Positions 31,000-52,283 of a DNA stretch of 64,000 bases are shown in pieces. The notes below the pieces were generated by a model. The model had not been told where the DNA came from. It saw nothing but the letters and a program-made list of their open reading frames with translations, and searched no databases. Location of the stretch: contig OY761611.1 of NCBI GenBank assembly GCA_963664875.1, positions 2,848,001 through 2,912,000 on the forward strand, written 5' to 3'. Numbering within the stretch: position 1 is the first letter of the stretch; each line of letters starts with the position of its first letter. The position numbers were made by a program, and so were the translations under genes. This stretch comes from Candidatus Kapaibacterium sp. Its GTDB lineage: Bacteria; Bacteroidota; Ignavibacteria; Kapaibacteriales; UBA2268.

Positions 31000-31040
31000 A
31001 AAAAACAACCGGTTCAAAATAATTCTGACCGGTTGTTTTT
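31000..31040 (-). terminator. Intrinsic terminator of TPR gene
   Basis: aaaaacaaccggt/accggttgttttt inverted repeat. Confidence 0.75.
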
Positions 31041-45379: not shown

Positions 45380-45865
45380 ATGGTACAAAAAAACAAGATA
45401 TGGCATGTGACCTGGGTTACTCGTAATAGTAGAATTAGCGAAAGGATGACTCTATATAAGGTTAAGCTTGAAAATCCAGTCATACTCACTGATGAAATGC
45501 GTAATATTATTGTAGAAAGTATCAAACGAAAAACACAAGAAGAAGCATTGGAAATCTATGCTTTTAATGTACTACTTGATCATGTCCATATTCTTATTAA
45601 ATCATCTGAAACTGAATTTGAAGAAATTGTTCGTAAATTAAAAGGGTATTCTTCTTATCAAATATCCAAAACTCTGGGTTACACATTAAAAAGTCAAGGA
45701 AAGCAGACAAAAATATGGGCTAAAAGCTTCAGCAAAACTTTAATCAGAGATATGAACCATCTTGGTGAATCGGTAAACTATATAAAAAACAATCACCTAA
45801 AACATGGTGTTTCTCAATGTAAAGCACTCTCTGTGTTCTCTCCAAGTACAATAAAGCAGTATTAA
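45380..45865 (+). CDS. IS200/IS605-superfamily Y1 HUH transposase, RAYT-like
   Basis: WHVTWVT, DHVHIL (HUH), LKGYSS, IWAKSF, NYIKNN (catalytic Tyr). Confidence 0.88.
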   Translation: MVQKNKIWHVTWVTRNSRISERMTLYKVKLENPVILTDEMRNIIVESIKRKTQEEALEIYAFNVLLDHVHILIKSSETEFEEIVRKLKGYSSYQISKTLGYTLKSQGKQTKIWAKSFSKTLIRDMNHLGESVNYIKNNHLKHGVSQCKALSVFSPSTIKQY

Positions 45866-47066: not shown

Positions 47067-48026
47067 ATGAAAAGAATCGGTATTTTGACAAGTGGGGGCG
47101 ACGCTCCCGGAATGAATGCTCATGTAAGAGCGGTCGTTCGTACTGCTCTTGCTCGGGGAGTTGAAGTCTATGGAATTATAGGCGGTTACTCAGGCATGAT
47201 TGAGGGCAATTTCGAAAAGCTCGGCAGAAAAGAAACTGCCAATATTATTGCTCGCGGTGGCACTATCCTTAAAACAAGCCGCTCCAAAGAATTTATGAAT
47301 GCCGGCGGACGTGCAGCAGCCGCTGACAGTATTCGTGAGGCAGGTATCGAAGGTATTATCGCTTGCGGCGGTAATGGAACATTGCAGGGTGCTCACGCGC
47401 TTTGGGAAGAGCACGGCATTCCGATTGTCGGCACTCCCGGCACTATTGATAACGACCTTTACGGAACATACTATACTATCGGCTATGATACTGCTCTTAA
47501 CACAGCTGCAGAAGCAATTGACCGAATTCGTGACACTGCTGATTCGCATGGTCGTGTTTTCTTAATTGAAGTAATGGGCAGACATGCCGGCTTTATAGCA
47601 ATGGATGTTGGTATCGCCACGGGAGCTGAGTTCATAGCAGTTCCTGAGTCACTAACTAATATGGATACACTCTATCAGCGAATACTCAAGCAAGGCAAGA
47701 CACGAAGAACTATCGTTATCGTTGGTGAAGGTGACGAAAACGGAGGAGCCACTAAAATGGGGCAAATTCTTCAGGAAAAATATGATATCAATCCGAAAGT
47801 AACAATACTAGGGCATATCCAACGTGGTGGCAGCCCAACTGTTAGAGACAGAGTTCTCGCAAGCCACCTTGGAGTAGAAGCAGTAAATGCCCTTTTAGAC
47901 GGTAAAACAGATGTAATGATTGGCAGAAAATATCACGAAATCCAATATACCCCTCTAAAAGATACCTGGACGAAGAAAAAAGAGCTTTGGAAGTATCTAA
48001 TCGATCTTTCCGATATGTTAATATAA
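47067..48026 (+). CDS. pfkA: ATP-dependent 6-phosphofructokinase
   Basis: LTSGGDAPGMNA, GGTIL, PGTIDND, EVMGR, LGHIQRGG. Confidence 0.97.
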   Translation: MKRIGILTSGGDAPGMNAHVRAVVRTALARGVEVYGIIGGYSGMIEGNFEKLGRKETANIIARGGTILKTSRSKEFMNAGGRAAAADSIREAGIEGIIACGGNGTLQGAHALWEEHGIPIVGTPGTIDNDLYGTYYTIGYDTALNTAAEAIDRIRDTADSHGRVFLIEVMGRHAGFIAMDVGIATGAEFIAVPESLTNMDTLYQRILKQGKTRRTIVIVGEGDENGGATKMGQILQEKYDINPKVTILGHIQRGGSPTVRDRVLASHLGVEAVNALLDGKTDVMIGRKYHEIQYTPLKDTWTKKKELWKYLIDLSDMLI

Positions 48027-48048: not shown

Positions 48049-48086
48049 GCTCTCTATTCTAATTTGCAGGATAGGGAGTTTTTTTT
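48049..48086 (+). terminator. Intrinsic terminator of pfkA
   Basis: ctctctattct/aggatagggag hairpin followed by T8. Confidence 0.75.
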
Positions 48087-48106
48087 GTGAGAAAAAGTAA
48101 TTTATA

Positions 48107-48135
48107 TTGTTTATTAAAATATTTTTTAATACTTT
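48107..48135 (+). promoter_or_regulatory. Candidate sigma70 promoter of the small-peptide gene
   Basis: TTGTTT-17 bp-TACTTT; predicted start near 48141. Confidence 0.45.
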
Positions 48136-48254
48136 TTATAGAGGTGCTAAGGGCTGTATAGGTTTAACAATCTCACACTTGAAAAAGTTTAAAGAGATTA
48201 GAGTAGGTAAGCACTAAATGCGCTTACACTTGTTAAACCGATATTGGAGGTAGT

Positions 48255-48416
48255 ATGCAAAATACCACTGAAAATACAAAAAAGAGCGGCAGCCCTGACA
48301 AGCCCCACCGCTCTTTTTTGAAATACTTAACTCAAAGCATTGAAGCTGTGAGTAAGTTAACGTCGCTAGCTAAAGGGATTAAATCTCTTTTAAAAGCGAT
48401 AAGTGAGATATTCTAA
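48255..48416 (+). CDS. Unannotated 53-aa peptide with C-terminal amphipathic helix; candidate type I toxin
   Basis: GGAGG Shine-Dalgarno at 48246-48250, ATG 48255, TAA 48414-48416; MQNTTENTKKSGSPDKPHRSFLKYLTQSIEAVSKLTSLAKGIKSLLKAISEIF. Below the length cutoff of the ORF track. Confidence 0.7.
   Translation: MQNTTENTKKSGSPDKPHRSFLKYLTQSIEAVSKLTSLAKGIKSLLKAISEIF
48277..48320 (-). terminator. Terminator hairpin inside the peptide ORF
   Basis: Perfect 13-bp inverted repeat CAAAAAAGAGCGG/CCGCTCTTTTTTG; the stem extends by G-U pairs only on the minus strand. Confidence 0.75.
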
Positions 48417-48466
48417 TCTCGCAATTGGATGTCCCTTTTCTTTCGAGACGAGGGGCATCCTCTTGT
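48277..48466 (-). ncRNA. Candidate antisense RNA (~190 nt, putative antitoxin)
   Basis: Minus-strand promoter TTGGAT-17-TATATT (48501-48473) and minus-strand terminator at 48320-48277. Confidence 0.6.
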
Positions 48467-48470
48467 TATT
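48427..48470 (+). terminator. 3' hairpin/terminator of the peptide mRNA
   Basis: GGATGTCCCTT-T-TCT(TTCG)AGA-C-GAGGGGCATCC with UUCG loop and plus-strand G-U pairs, followed by TCTTGTTATT. Confidence 0.7.
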
Positions 48471-48472
48471 GT

Positions 48473-48501
48473 AATATACTAAGTAATTGATATATATCCA
48501 A
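48473..48501 (-). promoter_or_regulatory. Candidate sigma70 promoter of the antisense RNA
   Basis: TTGGAT-ATATATCAATTACTTAG(17)-TATATT on the minus strand. Confidence 0.55.
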
Positions 48502-48589
48502 ATAAGGAAACCTTTTTAAATATATACCTGTACTGTTTTTTTAGAATTGAAAATATTATTGAGCGTTAGCTTATACTATCAACTATCAA

Positions 48590-49129
48590 TTATTCAATGA
48601 TTGTATAAATAGGGCCTTTGTTTGTAAGTTCGCTTGCTACTAATTTCACATCAAATCCATCCATAAATCCAAACTGTTTATCTTTATAAGTTTTGATTTT
48701 TTGTGAAAATGTATTTTTATCTGCTTCTTTTATTCTAATCAGTGTAAGGTGCGATTGGAATTTATGTTTTTCGCGAGCAAAGCCAATTTTTTCTAACTTT
48801 GATTCTATTTGACCGGCTATTTTGTTTAATATATTTGCTTCCGAAAAGACAGGAACATAAAGAAGACGAGGATTGTGCAAATTGGGAAATGCTCCTACTC
48901 CCGAAAATGATAGATTGCGTTTGAAATGCTTTAATTCGTCTTTCAAAGCATCCTTTATCTCCGGAATCTTTGACTCTTCTGTGTCCCCGAGGAATTTGAA
49001 AGTAAAATGCAGATTGGAGTGTTCGACCCATTTACCTTTAATGCAGCCTGCAAAATCATCTTTGATGTCATCTAATACAAATCGGAATATATCCTGATCG
49101 ACAAAAGTAGCGAGAAATAATCTTTTCAT
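48590..49129 (-). CDS. thpR: RNA 2',3'-cyclic phosphodiesterase
   Basis: Two HxT motifs (NLHFTFKFLG, HLTLIR), RLFLA start, GPIY end. Confidence 0.93.
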   Translation of the reverse strand: MKRLFLATFVDQDIFRFVLDDIKDDFAGCIKGKWVEHSNLHFTFKFLGDTEESKIPEIKDALKDELKHFKRNLSFSGVGAFPNLHNPRLLYVPVFSEANILNKIAGQIESKLEKIGFAREKHKFQSHLTLIRIKEADKNTFSQKIKTYKDKQFGFMDGFDVKLVASELTNKGPIYTIIE

Positions 49130-49141
49130 TTGAAAAACCTG

Positions 49142-50335
49142 TTAGAAATCAAATTCAGCTTTTAATAAAGGCAAAATACTATATTCTTTTTTTTCTGCAA
49201 TGAAATAAATTGCACCGAGCTTGAAAGAAATATTATAAAAGTTGTACTGTATTGCGTTGCTAAGGATATAAGCCTTGCCTTGTGCTTCTTTTAGCATACT
49301 TGCTTCGCTTGTATAGTAAAAATTATTGTAGAGTCTAAATACTCCTGCCAAGTTCAAAATATTAGAAGCAAAATCTTTTTCCATCTCTGACTGGTAAGAA
49401 TACAATACAGAAATGTTATTCTCATCACTACCGAAATTAAGACCTAAATGTAAAAGTCCCGGCATTTTACCCTCTTTATGGAATGCAATTGCTTCTGCAA
49501 ATAGTTTGAGAGACTTTGTTAAAGGAACAGCCCCCTTTACTGAAAAAGATATTGGGTACTTTCCGCTTTGTTCGTAAAGTATTGGCATTGCAAAGCCTCC
49601 GCCTATTTGCAGCCAGTGGCTGATGTTATAACTAACAGTTGTATAATATAAATCTATAACTTCAGCCTTCACTTCTTCTGCATTCCCAATGTATGCTGAG
49701 GGTAAAAATAAATATCTGCTACTAAAGCGGTTTATTATATTCTGATAGTCAAACATTGTATCACCATTAATGCTGATGATGCTTTCAAGGTTCAAATGTA
49801 AAGTATCATTGTCTCTAATTGCACTACAAGCTGCTGAGTTCAGCCCGACTACCCTGCAATCAAAATCCCCGTATTCATAGGTACGGAGTGTTATGCTTTC
49901 TCTCTTATTTTTGATAAGTTGTATCAGGTTAAAAAGTCTAATATCGGGGAAGTCGTCAGAATACTTATCTTCAATCACATCAATTGGCAACTGCATGATT
50001 CCTGCACCTGTGTCTAAAAGAATTTTGTCTTGACTTAATCCGAAGAAGATGCCTTTGCATTTTTCAATTCTTTTTAAATAAATTGGCAGGCCTTTAGGCA
50101 ATATCTCTAACTTTTCGCGGAAAGATAACTCCGGGAGAGAAAAGAGCATCTCTATTCTGTTTTTTGGAATATGCTTTAGTTTGTTATTGTTAAAAATTGA
50201 AATATTGAGACTATCGTGAGAGTTTATCTTGCCGATGATTATATGCCTTGAATTTGTAACAAGAATATCTATGCTCATGGCAGAATGTAGCATTGTAAAC
50301 AGTAATCCGGCAATGAGTATTGCATAATTTGGCAT
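49142..50335 (-). CDS. Hypothetical exported protein, probable C-terminal outer-membrane beta-barrel
   Basis: Signal peptide, short repeated N-terminal beta modules, RYLFLPSA, terminal Phe. Confidence 0.7.
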   Translation of the reverse strand: MPNYAILIAGLLFTMLHSAMSIDILVTNSRHIIIGKINSHDSLNISIFNNNKLKHIPKNRIEMLFSLPELSFREKLEILPKGLPIYLKRIEKCKGIFFGLSQDKILLDTGAGIMQLPIDVIEDKYSDDFPDIRLFNLIQLIKNKRESITLRTYEYGDFDCRVVGLNSAACSAIRDNDTLHLNLESIISINGDTMFDYQNIINRFSSRYLFLPSAYIGNAEEVKAEVIDLYYTTVSYNISHWLQIGGGFAMPILYEQSGKYPISFSVKGAVPLTKSLKLFAEAIAFHKEGKMPGLLHLGLNFGSDENNISVLYSYQSEMEKDFASNILNLAGVFRLYNNFYYTSEASMLKEAQGKAYILSNAIQYNFYNISFKLGAIYFIAEKKEYSILPLLKAEFDF

Positions 50336-50547
50336 TGGTTTGGATTCTAATCATCAAACATAATTGCAAATATAAATCAAATGATGTATTCTAAAGAAAT
50401 AACTTCAAGCTTTTTCCGTAAATTTGTTTGGTAGGCAAGGAATTTATAATCACACCTTGCCTTATACGATTTAGAATAGTATATTGATATTATGTAATCA
50501 TATCTTTTGACTGAACAGAAAATATCAACTTTCAAGATAGAGCTATT

Positions 50548-51729
50548 ATGAAAATAGAACAGATAGAAATCAAAAACTTTAAAGCGTTCAAACATGCGGT
50601 CATGAAAGATATACCAAACCTTTGTGTGGTTGTTGGTGCCAATGGTACTGGGAAATCAACACTGTTCGACGTTTTTGGCTTTCTAAAGGATGCAATGACA
50701 GACAATGTAACATCTGCCCTAAATAAAAGAGGTGGATTTGTCCAAGTTGTAAGTAGAAATATTGATAAGCCGATAGAACTTGAAATTAAGTTTAGAGAAG
50801 ATAAAGATAAGCCTCTAGTTACATATCATTTGATAATTTCACTCGAAGCGGGAAAGCCAGTGGTCGAAAGAGAAATATTAAAATATAGGAGAGGTAGCAA
50901 AGGGAAACCTTGGCACTTTCTAGACTTCTCCCGTGGTAGAGGCTCTTCAATCACAACAGAGTTAGAATATTTAGAGGATGAAACAAAAGAATTAGAAAGA
51001 CAAGATCAAAAGCTTTCTAGACCAGATATTCTTGCAATTAAAGGCCTGTCTCAATTTGAGCAGTTTCCAGTAGCTGTCAAGTTTGGTAAATTAATTGAAA
51101 ATTGGCACATCTCCGATTTCCATATTACAAGTGCTAGAACTATTCAAGATGATGCATATGCGGAACATTTGTCTAGAGAAGGGGAGAATTTGTCATTAGT
51201 AACGAAATACTTATATGATCAGCATCATTTTGTTTTTCTATCTATACTTGATAAATTAAAAAGCAGAGTTCCTGGAATTACTTCAGTTAGTGCAAAAACT
51301 ACCGAAGAAGGGAGGGTCTTACTTAAATTCCAAGATGGGAGTTTCAAAGATCCATTTTTAGCAAGATATGTATCAGATGGTACAATCAAAATGTTTGCTT
51401 ATTTAGTATTGTTATATGACCCAGCACCTCACCCTCTACTTTGCATCGAAGAACCCGAAAACCAGCTTTATCCCAAGTTATTAGTCGAGCTTGCAGAAGA
51501 GTTTCGGTTGTATGCAAACAAAGGCGGTCAGGTTTTTGTCTCAACTCACTCACCGGATTTTCTAAACGCTATGAAAATTGAAGAAGTTTTTTGGTTGGAG
51601 AAAAAAAACGGATATACCGGAATTAAGCGTGCTTTTGATAACGAGCAACTCAAAATATACATGGAGAACGGTGATCAAATGGGGTATCTCTGGACTCAGG
51701 GATTTTTTGAGGAGGTTGACACAATATGA
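50548..51729 (+). CDS. ABC-type AAA ATPase (AAA_21/AAA_15, OLD/AbiEii-like)
   Basis: IEIKNFKAF, Walker A GANGTGKS, signature VSDGT, Walker B IEEPEN, H-loop STHSP. Confidence 0.92.
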   Translation: MKIEQIEIKNFKAFKHAVMKDIPNLCVVVGANGTGKSTLFDVFGFLKDAMTDNVTSALNKRGGFVQVVSRNIDKPIELEIKFREDKDKPLVTYHLIISLEAGKPVVEREILKYRRGSKGKPWHFLDFSRGRGSSITTELEYLEDETKELERQDQKLSRPDILAIKGLSQFEQFPVAVKFGKLIENWHISDFHITSARTIQDDAYAEHLSREGENLSLVTKYLYDQHHFVFLSILDKLKSRVPGITSVSAKTTEEGRVLLKFQDGSFKDPFLARYVSDGTIKMFAYLVLLYDPAPHPLLCIEEPENQLYPKLLVELAEEFRLYANKGGQVFVSTHSPDFLNAMKIEEVFWLEKKNGYTGIKRAFDNEQLKIYMENGDQMGYLWTQGFFEEVDTI

Positions 51730-52283
51730 TGCATCTTGTGTTTTTTGTAGAGGAGCTTTCTGCTAAAGAATTCATAGACAAACTAATTCCGAGAATATCT
51801 ACAGAAGTTACGTTCAAAACAATTCCCTTCAATGGGAAGCAGGACTTAGAGAAGAATTTATTCAAAAAAATGAAGTATTACCTCGTATCCAATTCCTATT
51901 TCTTTGTTGTACGAGATCAGGATTCGGGTGACTGTATTAAAATAAAACAGAATCTTTCCGACATCTGTAGAGAAACAGGCAAACAGGATTATATAGTAAG
52001 AATTGCTTGTAGAGAATTAGAAAGCTGGTACTTGGCGGATTTATCTGCTGTCGAAAATGCTTTAGACATTAAAGGCATTGCTAAACTGCAAAACAAATCT
52101 CAATATAGGCAGCCTGATAATTTAGAAAATCCTTCCAAAGAGTTGGAGACACTGACTAAAGGCCAATATCAAAAAGTATCAGGTTCAAGAAAAATAGCTG
52201 ATTTTATTGATTTGAATAATAATCGCTCTAAAAGTTTTTATCATTTTGTGCAAGCCGTTCGTCGCATTAGCACAGCTTCCTGA
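51726..52283 (+). CDS. DUF4276-family TOPRIM-like protein
   Basis: FFVEE (TOPRIM Glu), RDQD (DxD), ACRELESWYL, NRSKSF; ATGA overlap with the ATPase stop. Confidence 0.82.
   Translation: MMHLVFFVEELSAKEFIDKLIPRISTEVTFKTIPFNGKQDLEKNLFKKMKYYLVSNSYFFVVRDQDSGDCIKIKQNLSDICRETGKQDYIVRIACRELESWYLADLSAVENALDIKGIAKLQNKSQYRQPDNLENPSKELETLTKGQYQKVSGSRKIADFIDLNNNRSKSFYHFVQAVRRISTAS

Follow-up and report, generated by a model that had tools for sequence, protein, structure and literature searches.

A possible antisense-overlapped peptide gene in the pfkA–thpR gap of a Candidatus Kapaibacterium genome

In the genome of Candidatus Kapaibacterium sp. (a single contig of 3.83 Mb, with a guanine plus cytosine (GC) content of 36%), a small gene may lie in the 500 nucleotides (nt) that separate the convergent genes pfkA and thpR. 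The gap occupies positions 48090–48589 of a 64,000-nt stretch (bases 2848001–2912000; hereafter the window, whose positions are used unless stated otherwise). The reading that we favor – tentatively, and with a little less than even confidence – is that of a translated orphan peptide gene overlapped by antisense RNA, for which toxicity is not assumed. On the one side stand the signals of a 53-codon open reading frame (ORF): its length, a GGAGG at the modal spacing, an amphipathic helix as product and a hairpin after the stop codon, each of which is unlikely in junk DNA. On the other stands extreme, mainly plus-favored RNA folding, which is likewise unlikely in junk DNA. A folded mRNA for a small peptide, overlapped by antisense RNA, would therefore cover both the ORF-side and the RNA-side signals. 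An earlier note on this DNA had gone further and described a locus like those of type I toxin–antitoxin (TA) systems, in which a 53-residue amphipathic peptide faces a convergent antisense RNA with its own promoter.

The open reading frame and its Shine-Dalgarno sequence

The ORF opens with ATG and spans 48255–48416 of the plus strand, where the earlier note had placed it. The perfect GGAGG Shine-Dalgarno (SD) sequence of that note is also present, at 48246–48250 on the same strand: it ends 4 nt 5′ of the ATG. The 3′ end of the 16S rRNA of the host genome (...CACCTCCTTTC) contains CCTCC, and upstream of 2113 long ORFs the frequency of G reaches 0.35 at −10/−9, in a peak spanning −12 to −7. GGAGG precedes 3.0% of these long ORFs compared to 0.7% of random positions. 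In the 66 cases where it occurs within 25 nt of a long ORF the spacer is 4 nt in 13 and 4–6 nt in 40, which places the spacer of the small ORF within the mode for this genome.

Dinucleotide shuffles of the gap were used as a null model. Among 5000 shuffles an ATG ORF of at least 53 codons arose in 322, such an ORF with a four-base SD in 24, and one with GGAGG in three. Genome-wide, GGAGG lies at −16 to −4 of three of the 356 intergenic ATG ORFs of 45–70 codons; the expectation, based on 9551 ATGs heading short frames in non-genic DNA, is approximately 0.9.

The predicted peptide

The 53 amino acids comprise a hydrophilic stretch (residues 1–20) followed by a 33-residue cationic helix. The earlier description of the peptide as amphipathic is borne out: the helical hydrophobic moment is 0.64 over 18 residues, with a net charge of about +5. 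This moment ranks fifth among the 356 small intergenic ORFs; of 2793 small ORFs that lie within long genes, 1.2% reach it. AlphaFold2, run on the single sequence, returns one helix (residues 15–52) with predicted local distance difference test values of 93–98 over residues 21–53; the N-terminal head would be disordered. No transmembrane segment was found in the peptide, the best 19-residue Kyte-Doolittle mean being 0.86 (the usual transmembrane threshold is 1.6). If made, the peptide most likely sits on or in the membrane surface. The idea of a leaderless bacteriocin was set aside on argument: the ORF is flanked by pfkA and thpR, and neither a transporter nor an immunity gene is among its neighbors.

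Another of the three small intergenic ORFs preceded by GGAGG lies at genome positions 3027973–3028119 on the minus strand (positions 501–647 of locus L131), 88 nt downstream of a gene for a 129-residue protein. Its 48-residue product has a hydrophobic N-terminal segment and a Lys-rich tail, a shape nearer to that of a small membrane protein or type I toxin than is the 53-residue peptide. In Pfam it gave sub-threshold matches to generic transmembrane families only (with a query that was off by one codon).

RNA folding of the gap

The plus strand of 48141–48470 folds at −108.6 kcal/mol (z = −6.67), which is lower than every one of 1109 random 330-nt windows of the genome; after correction for GC the residual is −36.7, compared to −29.7 for the best random window. 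The best 200-nt window (48271–48470) would rank third against 3065 windows taken in 100-nt steps from all 850 gaps of at least 200 nt, and other offsets seventh to 245th, the locus itself having been scanned at 10-nt steps, a choice that favors it in this ranking. Among the 12 best other folded windows, two hold tRNA pairs, several hold repeated palindromic elements, and one or two hold strong terminators.

Six stem-loop elements make up the fold, and for five of them the plus-strand form is the more stable. A three-way junction in the leader (48157–48243, plus strand) is closed by a 14-nt inverted repeat with 93% complementarity; 48141–48262 folds at −30.2 kcal/mol (z = −2.46), an energy that 3 of 200 shuffles equalled or beat. 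Three consecutive plus-strand hairpins (48325–48424) lie within the 3′ two-thirds of the ORF, where 48321–48426 folds at −33.7 kcal/mol on the plus strand (z = −5.12; none of 200 shuffles as good) and at −25.9 kcal/mol on the minus strand (z = −3.65). The two remaining elements, T2 and T3, had been recognized in the earlier note as a perfect 13-bp inverted repeat inside the ORF and a UUCG-capped hairpin beyond it, and both are there. T2 (48277–48320, inside codons 8–22) is the one element that favors the minus strand. It has the A-tract, GC-containing stem and T-tract of a bidirectional intrinsic terminator (A6-stem-T6), with perfect arms at 48277–48289 (CAAAAAAGAGCGG) and 48308–48320 (CCGCTCTTTTTTG) and 18 nt between them; G–U pairs extend the stem to 19 bp on the minus strand only. 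T3 (48427–48460, plus strand) is a 14-bp hairpin that begins 10 nt after the stop codon and is followed by a broken U-rich tail, CUCUUGUUAUUG; in the terminator scan only its upper part is terminator-like. The strand asymmetry that the earlier note read from the G–U pairs holds in the folding energies: T2 folds at −25.1 kcal/mol on the minus strand and −19.4 on the plus strand (z = −6.1 and −6.5 on the two strands), T3 at −24.7 on the plus strand and −17.8 on the minus strand, and for both hairpins on both strands (z from −4.4 to −6.5) none of 200 shuffles was as good. A second perfect hairpin of the A5-stem-T5 bidirectional kind lies elsewhere in the window, at 31001–31040, also with 18 nt between its arms.

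The fold matches no RNA family in Rfam. Between 47500 and 49200 the best Rfam match was L10_leader (24.2 bits, gathering threshold 44), over the pfkA terminator, with nothing credible in the gap; for the gap no match appeared even at E ≤ 10, and the only gathering-level match of the whole window is a tRNA. Two single-sequence covariance models of the locus (R1 and R2) found no credible relative in 129 genomes of the family. Four weak R2 matches were dismissed: their number is that expected by chance, and the two inspected lay inside a gene and in an unrelated gap. Because the sequence is not conserved, it offers no covariation of the kind that the earlier note had proposed to analyze.

A miniature inverted-repeat transposable element (MITE) or repetitive extragenic palindromic (REP) element was also considered and discarded, since the sequence occurs only once in the genome, its one DNA match being to itself: other top-folded windows are repeated, the locus is not. 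Elsewhere in the genome, outside the window, a MITE-like repeat of approximately 200 nt (L119, L120 and L122, near genome positions 3688891, 3306020 and 3369678) has terminal inverted repeats GGCTGTCTCATAAGTC.../...GACTTATGAGACAGCC and a long internal palindrome; it is among the most folded windows of the genome and has no Rfam match. A REP-like family of GC-rich palindromes, also outside the window, is built of AGCCCGGGGCAACGCCCCGGG and GAGCCCTGTAAGGGCG units (L121, L128 and L130, near 3223671, 3392340 and 156095).

Predicted readthrough from thpR and a proposed arrangement

The position of T2 bears directly on the source of antisense RNA. Between the thpR stop codon (48590, minus strand) and T2 the terminator scan found no minus-strand terminator-like site; the transcript of the thpR operon is therefore expected to extend 270 nt into the gap and to stop at T2, which is probably, from its sequence, the terminator of that operon. 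In a same-genus genome (G001) a hairpin of the T2 type lies about 75 nt after the thpR stop codon and is common to thpR and the gene convergent with it. Since thpR has no earlier terminator, its own 3′ untranslated region (UTR) would be an antisense RNA, and the separate antisense gene proposed in the earlier note is not required. Moreover, as the minus-strand terminator lies inside the ORF, any minus-strand RNA ending there would be antisense to approximately 140 nt of the ORF and also to the 3′ hairpin. Readthrough from thpR cuts both ways: it would account for an antisense RNA, but an ordinary gene would hardly tolerate T2.

We infer two transcripts from these features. The gap would be the overlapping 3′-end zone of two convergent transcription units, the plus-strand unit being a strain-specific small gene. 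Its RNA, of about 320 nt (roughly 48141–48465), would begin after the terminator of pfkA, carry the chain of six stem-loop elements together with GGAGG, ATG and the ORF, and end at the UUCG-capped hairpin. The thpR operon transcript would run some 270 nt past its stop codon to the hairpin at 48320–48277, and its 3′ UTR, whether or not an antisense promoter of its own also contributes, would pair without mismatch to the last 46 codons and to the 3′ hairpin. The two RNAs could then form a duplex cleavable by RNase III, an enzyme that the genome encodes (112 bits, above the family cut-off). Plus-strand transcripts that are not being translated would terminate prematurely at T2; translation-coupled antitermination is a known principle, and a translating ribosome would melt T2 on that strand. 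Little peptide would then be made, and its amount would fall as transcription of the thpR operon rises.

Promoter candidates

The plus-strand promoter named in the earlier note, TTGTTT-17-TACTTT (48107–48137), matches the sigma-70 consensus at six of 12 positions (three in each hexamer), is unlisted by the promoter scan and is no better than chance. It overlaps a site at 48130–48137, TACTTTTT, that differs by one mismatch from the motif TAnnTTTG and is preceded by TTG at a distance of 20 nt. The minus-strand candidates span 48473–48524. The sigma-70-like site there, given in the earlier note as TTGGAT-17-TATATT and listed by the scan as TGGATA-16-TATATT (48500–48473), exists with nine of 12 matches, at a level that chance also reaches; a one-mismatch TAnnTTTG site, TATATTTA, lies at 48524–48517. 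In all, the region holds 11 promoter-like sites compared to 7.2 ± 2.6 in shuffles: there is no excess.

The choice of TAnnTTTG follows from the genome itself. Across 1095 upstream regions it occurs 372 times in sense and 226 times in antisense orientation, with a peak 40–50 nt before start codons, whereas TATAAT (315 and 341) and TTGACA (60 and 53) show no orientation bias; the organism therefore uses this element, which we take to be the −7 element of the Bacteroidota type. Two TAnnTTTG sites lie on the minus strand at 50355–50374, upstream of the first gene of the thpR operon. The gap has no exact TAnnTTTG on either strand, only the one-mismatch sites; this is weak evidence against a promoter, because most upstream regions lack the exact motif. 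An alignment of 246 sites showed no clear −33 element. The host genome thus pairs a TAnnTTTG promoter element with moderate use of SD sequences.

Relatives of the locus

The searches for relatives count against the proposed gene. The earlier note had suggested looking for further copies: there are none. In the host genome the gap DNA matches itself alone (its 12-mers are unique outside A/T runs) and the peptide likewise has only its self-match. Among 40 relatives, nine gave only 20–52-nt, mostly A/T-rich matches to the gap DNA, and the peptide gave nothing significant (six matches had E values of 0.05–0.7, several with in-frame stops or inside long ORFs). Nor has the peptide a homologue in the 129 family genomes, where the sole match (E = 0.018) was rejected, being inside a gene for a 318-residue protein on the opposite strand.

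Compared to 5.8 billion clustered and 1.84 billion representative proteins, the peptide has one relative, P0001, a 53-residue protein from four contigs of JGI/IMG metagenomes; it is identical at 52 of 53 residues, the sole change being D15Q, and the 1.84 billion representative proteins include no other homologue. That the ORF is a fragment of a longer gene was ruled out, since a HMMER search against proteins of all lengths gave P0001 alone. Of the four bases in the apical loop of T2 on the minus strand, three come from the D15Q codon (48297–48299): because the change spares both stems and falls in the predicted disordered head, it is compatible with constraint on either RNA or peptide, although it is a single data point. 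In three runs (X2, X4 and X7, whose kind is not on record) the sequence is identical to the locus, without variation.

The peptide family, which the earlier note did not recognize, has no match in the family databases either. Pfam gave only DUF4543 (E = 0.048, below cut-off), NCBIfam nothing at E ≤ 1, and the best E values in PADLOC and PHROGs were 0.019 and 0.13; the peptide thus matches no toxin family described in these four collections. Metagenome contigs yielded no match by peptide scan or by an exact 24-nt pattern, viral contigs, phages and plasmids yielded none, and the best score in the ESM Atlas (0.84) is under its useful range.

Alternative explanations

Absence of conservation is one of several observations that speak against a translated gene. 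The codon log-likelihood of the ORF is 0.061 per codon, compared to 0.227 ± 0.094 for windows of real genes and 0.005 ± 0.122 for small intergenic ORFs (the 4th and 73rd percentile, respectively), and its GC is lower at first than at third codon positions (0.34 and 0.415; in the genes of the genome 0.46 and 0.31, 1.3rd percentile). Strong folding within an ORF is unusual for coding sequence. No promoter in the gap, on either strand, stands above chance, and the tail of T3 is a poor U-tract relative to that of the pfkA terminator. The wastewater metatranscriptome X1 contained 0.05 of the sampled words and gave no contig over 47500–49200. T2, in frame within the ORF, is a further difficulty: read on the plus strand (−19.4 kcal/mol, then U6) it could end the mRNA after codon 22. 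T2 is one of 58 perfect A5-stem-T5 hairpins in the genome, of which 54 lie outside long ORFs, three overlap one partly and one is wholly inside, while long ORFs cover 86% of the genome; hairpins of this kind are therefore genuine bidirectional terminators, kept out of coding sequence, in which they are almost never tolerated. Seven of the 54 intergenic hairpins fall inside an ATG ORF of 40–119 codons, so accidental frames across terminators are common. Much of this evidence would also suit non-coding 3′-end territory in which the 53-codon frame is accidental: rearrangement would have left approximately 500 nt of unique DNA, T2 would be the terminator of the thpR operon, and the other hairpins would stabilize a long thpR 3′ UTR or be relics. 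The strong folding of the minus strand (z = −6.19 for 48270–48590) and the position of this orphan locus at a synteny break point the same way. What makes a chance ORF rather unlikely, if far from negligible, is the conjunction of features. GGAGG at modal spacing with an ATG and 53 codons (3 of 5000 shuffles) and an amphipathic helix in the top 1.2% are jointly improbable; none of the six other terminator-spanning ORFs has GGAGG; five of the six stem-loop elements favor the plus strand; and a plus-favored hairpin stands 10 nt after the stop codon.

Two further readings keep the RNA but change its role. If the locus were a true type I TA system, a membrane-damaging toxin would be repressed, by cleavage with RNase III or by a block to translation, through a dedicated antisense small RNA (sRNA) that starts near 48510 or 48466, ends near 48277 and has a promoter of its own. 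The convergent, 3′-overlapping layout fits, with 140–190 nt of complementarity compared to 100–140 bp in Bacillus subtilis pairs (PMC6562991), as do the highly folded mRNA, the strong SD and the presence of RNase III. The variable neighborhood suits TA loci, with a candidate defense gene (HEC-01B) 2 kb away and an IS200-like transposase at 2.4 kb, and homology searches find type I toxins poorly (PMC6562991). Against this, the peptide has no transmembrane segment (maximum 0.86) and no toxin-family match in Pfam, NCBIfam or PADLOC; the locus is single-copy; the antisense promoter is not above chance; and minus-strand RNA is already accounted for by readthrough from thpR. Taken together these points make true TA membership very improbable. 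A structured plus-strand regulatory RNA, wholly non-coding or of dual function like RNAIII of Staphylococcus aureus (which also encodes the amphipathic delta-haemolysin), we regard as clearly unlikely. The ORF would then have a subordinate role, or the exposed GGAGG region would act in pairing or as a decoy, and T2 on the plus strand could release an sRNA of approximately 180 nt (48141–48325). Its structure, exceptional compared to the rest of the genome, the favored plus strand and the order of three-way junction, single-stranded GGAGG region and terminator hairpin would all be in keeping with such an RNA. However, neither Rfam (even at E ≤ 10) nor the two covariance models in the 129 family genomes gave a credible relative, most large non-coding RNAs have a long-range architecture that is missing from this string of local hairpins, and an ORF that has GGAGG and encodes an amphipathic peptide is unlikely to arise by chance. 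An antisense-overlapped peptide gene remains the reading we favor, with its atypical codon usage, in-frame T2, lack of an above-chance promoter and lack of conservation standing against it.

Relation to known systems

Type I toxins are described as small (<60 amino acids) hydrophobic peptides with an alpha-helical transmembrane domain, and TxpA, BsrG and nearly all others carry such a segment (PMC6562991). The 53-residue peptide is instead amphipathic, with a charge of about +5 and a Kyte-Doolittle maximum of 0.86. Antisense cover of about 100–140 nt in the 3′ part of the toxin mRNA is typical, and the sequence here implies 140–190 nt between the predicted RNAs; as for an antitoxin with its own promoter, the minus strand offers only the nine-of-12 sigma-70-like site and the one-mismatch TAnnTTTG site, neither above chance. 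Because there is no transmembrane helix and no toxin-family match, we do not file the locus as type I TA, although it may work like one. Of the type I TA system proposed in the earlier note, the layout stands (SD, ORF, 3′ hairpin and an antisense terminator inside the ORF) and the membership is not supported, in the absence of a transmembrane segment and of homologues. The alternative wording of that note, an antisense-controlled peptide module, fits better.

The likeness to txpA/RatA and bsrG/SR4 is one of organization: convergent units whose predicted RNAs would share more than 100 nt of complementary 3′ sequence, an antisense terminator within the sense unit, and an ORF of fewer than 60 codons in a strongly folded mRNA, with RNase III available. 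The differences lie in the peptide (a cationic amphipathic helix after a 20-residue hydrophilic head, with no transmembrane domain), in the locus (single-copy, outside any recognizable prophage and unrelated to known toxin families) and in the putative antisense RNA, which may be no more than the thpR 3′ UTR. T2 has exactly the form of the bidirectional intrinsic terminators found between convergent genes (A-tract, GC stem, T-tract); unlike these, it stands 270 nt past the thpR stop, inside an SD-led ORF, and only on the minus strand does its stem reach 19 bp. Dual-function sRNAs with a coding sequence for an amphipathic peptide, such as RNAIII/hld and psm-mec RNA of S. aureus, share with the locus a multi-hairpin RNA of a few hundred nt and a short ORF for an amphipathic helical peptide without signal peptide. 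However, the peptide considered here is longer, with a hydrophilic N-terminal extension and no homology to theirs, and a regulatory role for its RNA is only a candidate one. In excludon-type arrangements the long 3′ UTRs of convergent genes overlap in antisense; here too an extended 3′ UTR would be antisense to a neighbor and could lower its expression, but that neighbor is an orphan ORF of 53 codons, and a terminator within it marks the end of the overlap.

To our knowledge, RNA-based regulation is almost undescribed in the phylum-level group concerned. A full-text search for type I TA with antisense RNA in Bacteroidetes found no literature on the subject by title, which does not prove that none is in print. 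It would be a long shot to see in this locus the founding case of a type I TA-like module in the Kapabacteria, members of the FCB group (Fibrobacterota-Chlorobiota-Bacteroidota). In such a module the toxin would be a non-transmembrane cationic amphipathic helix, the thpR 3′ UTR would serve as "antitoxin" terminated inside the toxin ORF, and peptide would be released when transcription of thpR, a housekeeping RNA-repair operon, is lost. If the peptide is made, the locus would be a lineage-specific small gene with its expression wired to the 3′ UTR of a neighbor and to a terminator in its own frame. The locus also illustrates how antisense-overlapped orphan genes can arise by gene rearrangement. 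If the ORF is untranslated, it is a caution, given the share of bidirectional terminators (7 of 54) that fall inside chance ORFs of 40–119 codons. In both cases its present value is modest, since all the evidence comes from one locus that is not conserved and belongs to a lineage not in culture.

Genomic setting

The left flank of the gap is pfkA (6-phosphofructokinase; 47067–48026, plus strand; Pfam PFK, E = 3e-101), whose closest relatives by similarity are in metagenome-assembled genomes labelled Candidatus Kapaibacterium, Kapabacteria or Ignavibacteria. It is followed on the same strand by its intrinsic terminator, T1 (48049–48087), a 12-bp stem with a run of eight T. The right flank is thpR (LigT-type 2′,3′-cyclic phosphodiesterase; 48590–49129, minus strand, with its stop at 48590; Pfam LigT_PEase, E = 4e-21), the last of two genes in a minus-strand unit; its partner (49142–50335) encodes 397 amino acids.

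In four other species of the genus (G001–G004) the two flanking genes are present but not adjacent. Their pfkA is 95–97% and their thpR 80–83% identical to those of the host, and in none of the four does pfkA lie within 1.5 kb of thpR: the distance is 546 kb in G001 and 551 kb in G004, and in G002 and G003 the genes are on separate contigs. The adjacency is thus specific to the host genome. Nucleotide homology on the pfkA side ends at 48084–48089 in three of the four and at 48025 in the other, and restarts on the thpR side at 48586–48590. The small-ORF locus, absent from all four genomes, is thus an orphan at a synteny break, where pfkA and thpR are newly joined. Reconstruction of an inversion junction was attempted and given up: the G001 neighbor of thpR maps to 1.77 Mb in the host genome and the G001 neighbor of pfkA has no homologue there, so that there is no simple reciprocal junction. 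That neighbor of pfkA, downstream of it in G001, encodes a protein of at least 405 amino acids.

Two features of the wider surroundings were also recorded. Upstream of pfkA, at a distance of 1.2 kb, is a gene for an IS200-like Y1 transposase of 161 amino acids (45380–45865, plus strand; Pfam Y1_Tnp, E = 7.5e-13). On the far side of the thpR operon, a gene for a 393-residue AAA ATPase begins at 50548 on the plus strand and matches the PADLOC model HEC-01B from end to end (E = 2.8e-196), HEC-01A models also matching; an ORF of 185 codons (51726–52283, plus strand) overlaps it by 4 nt. Judged by sequence similarity, 50548–52283 is probably a two-gene candidate anti-phage defense system, 2 kb from the small ORF.

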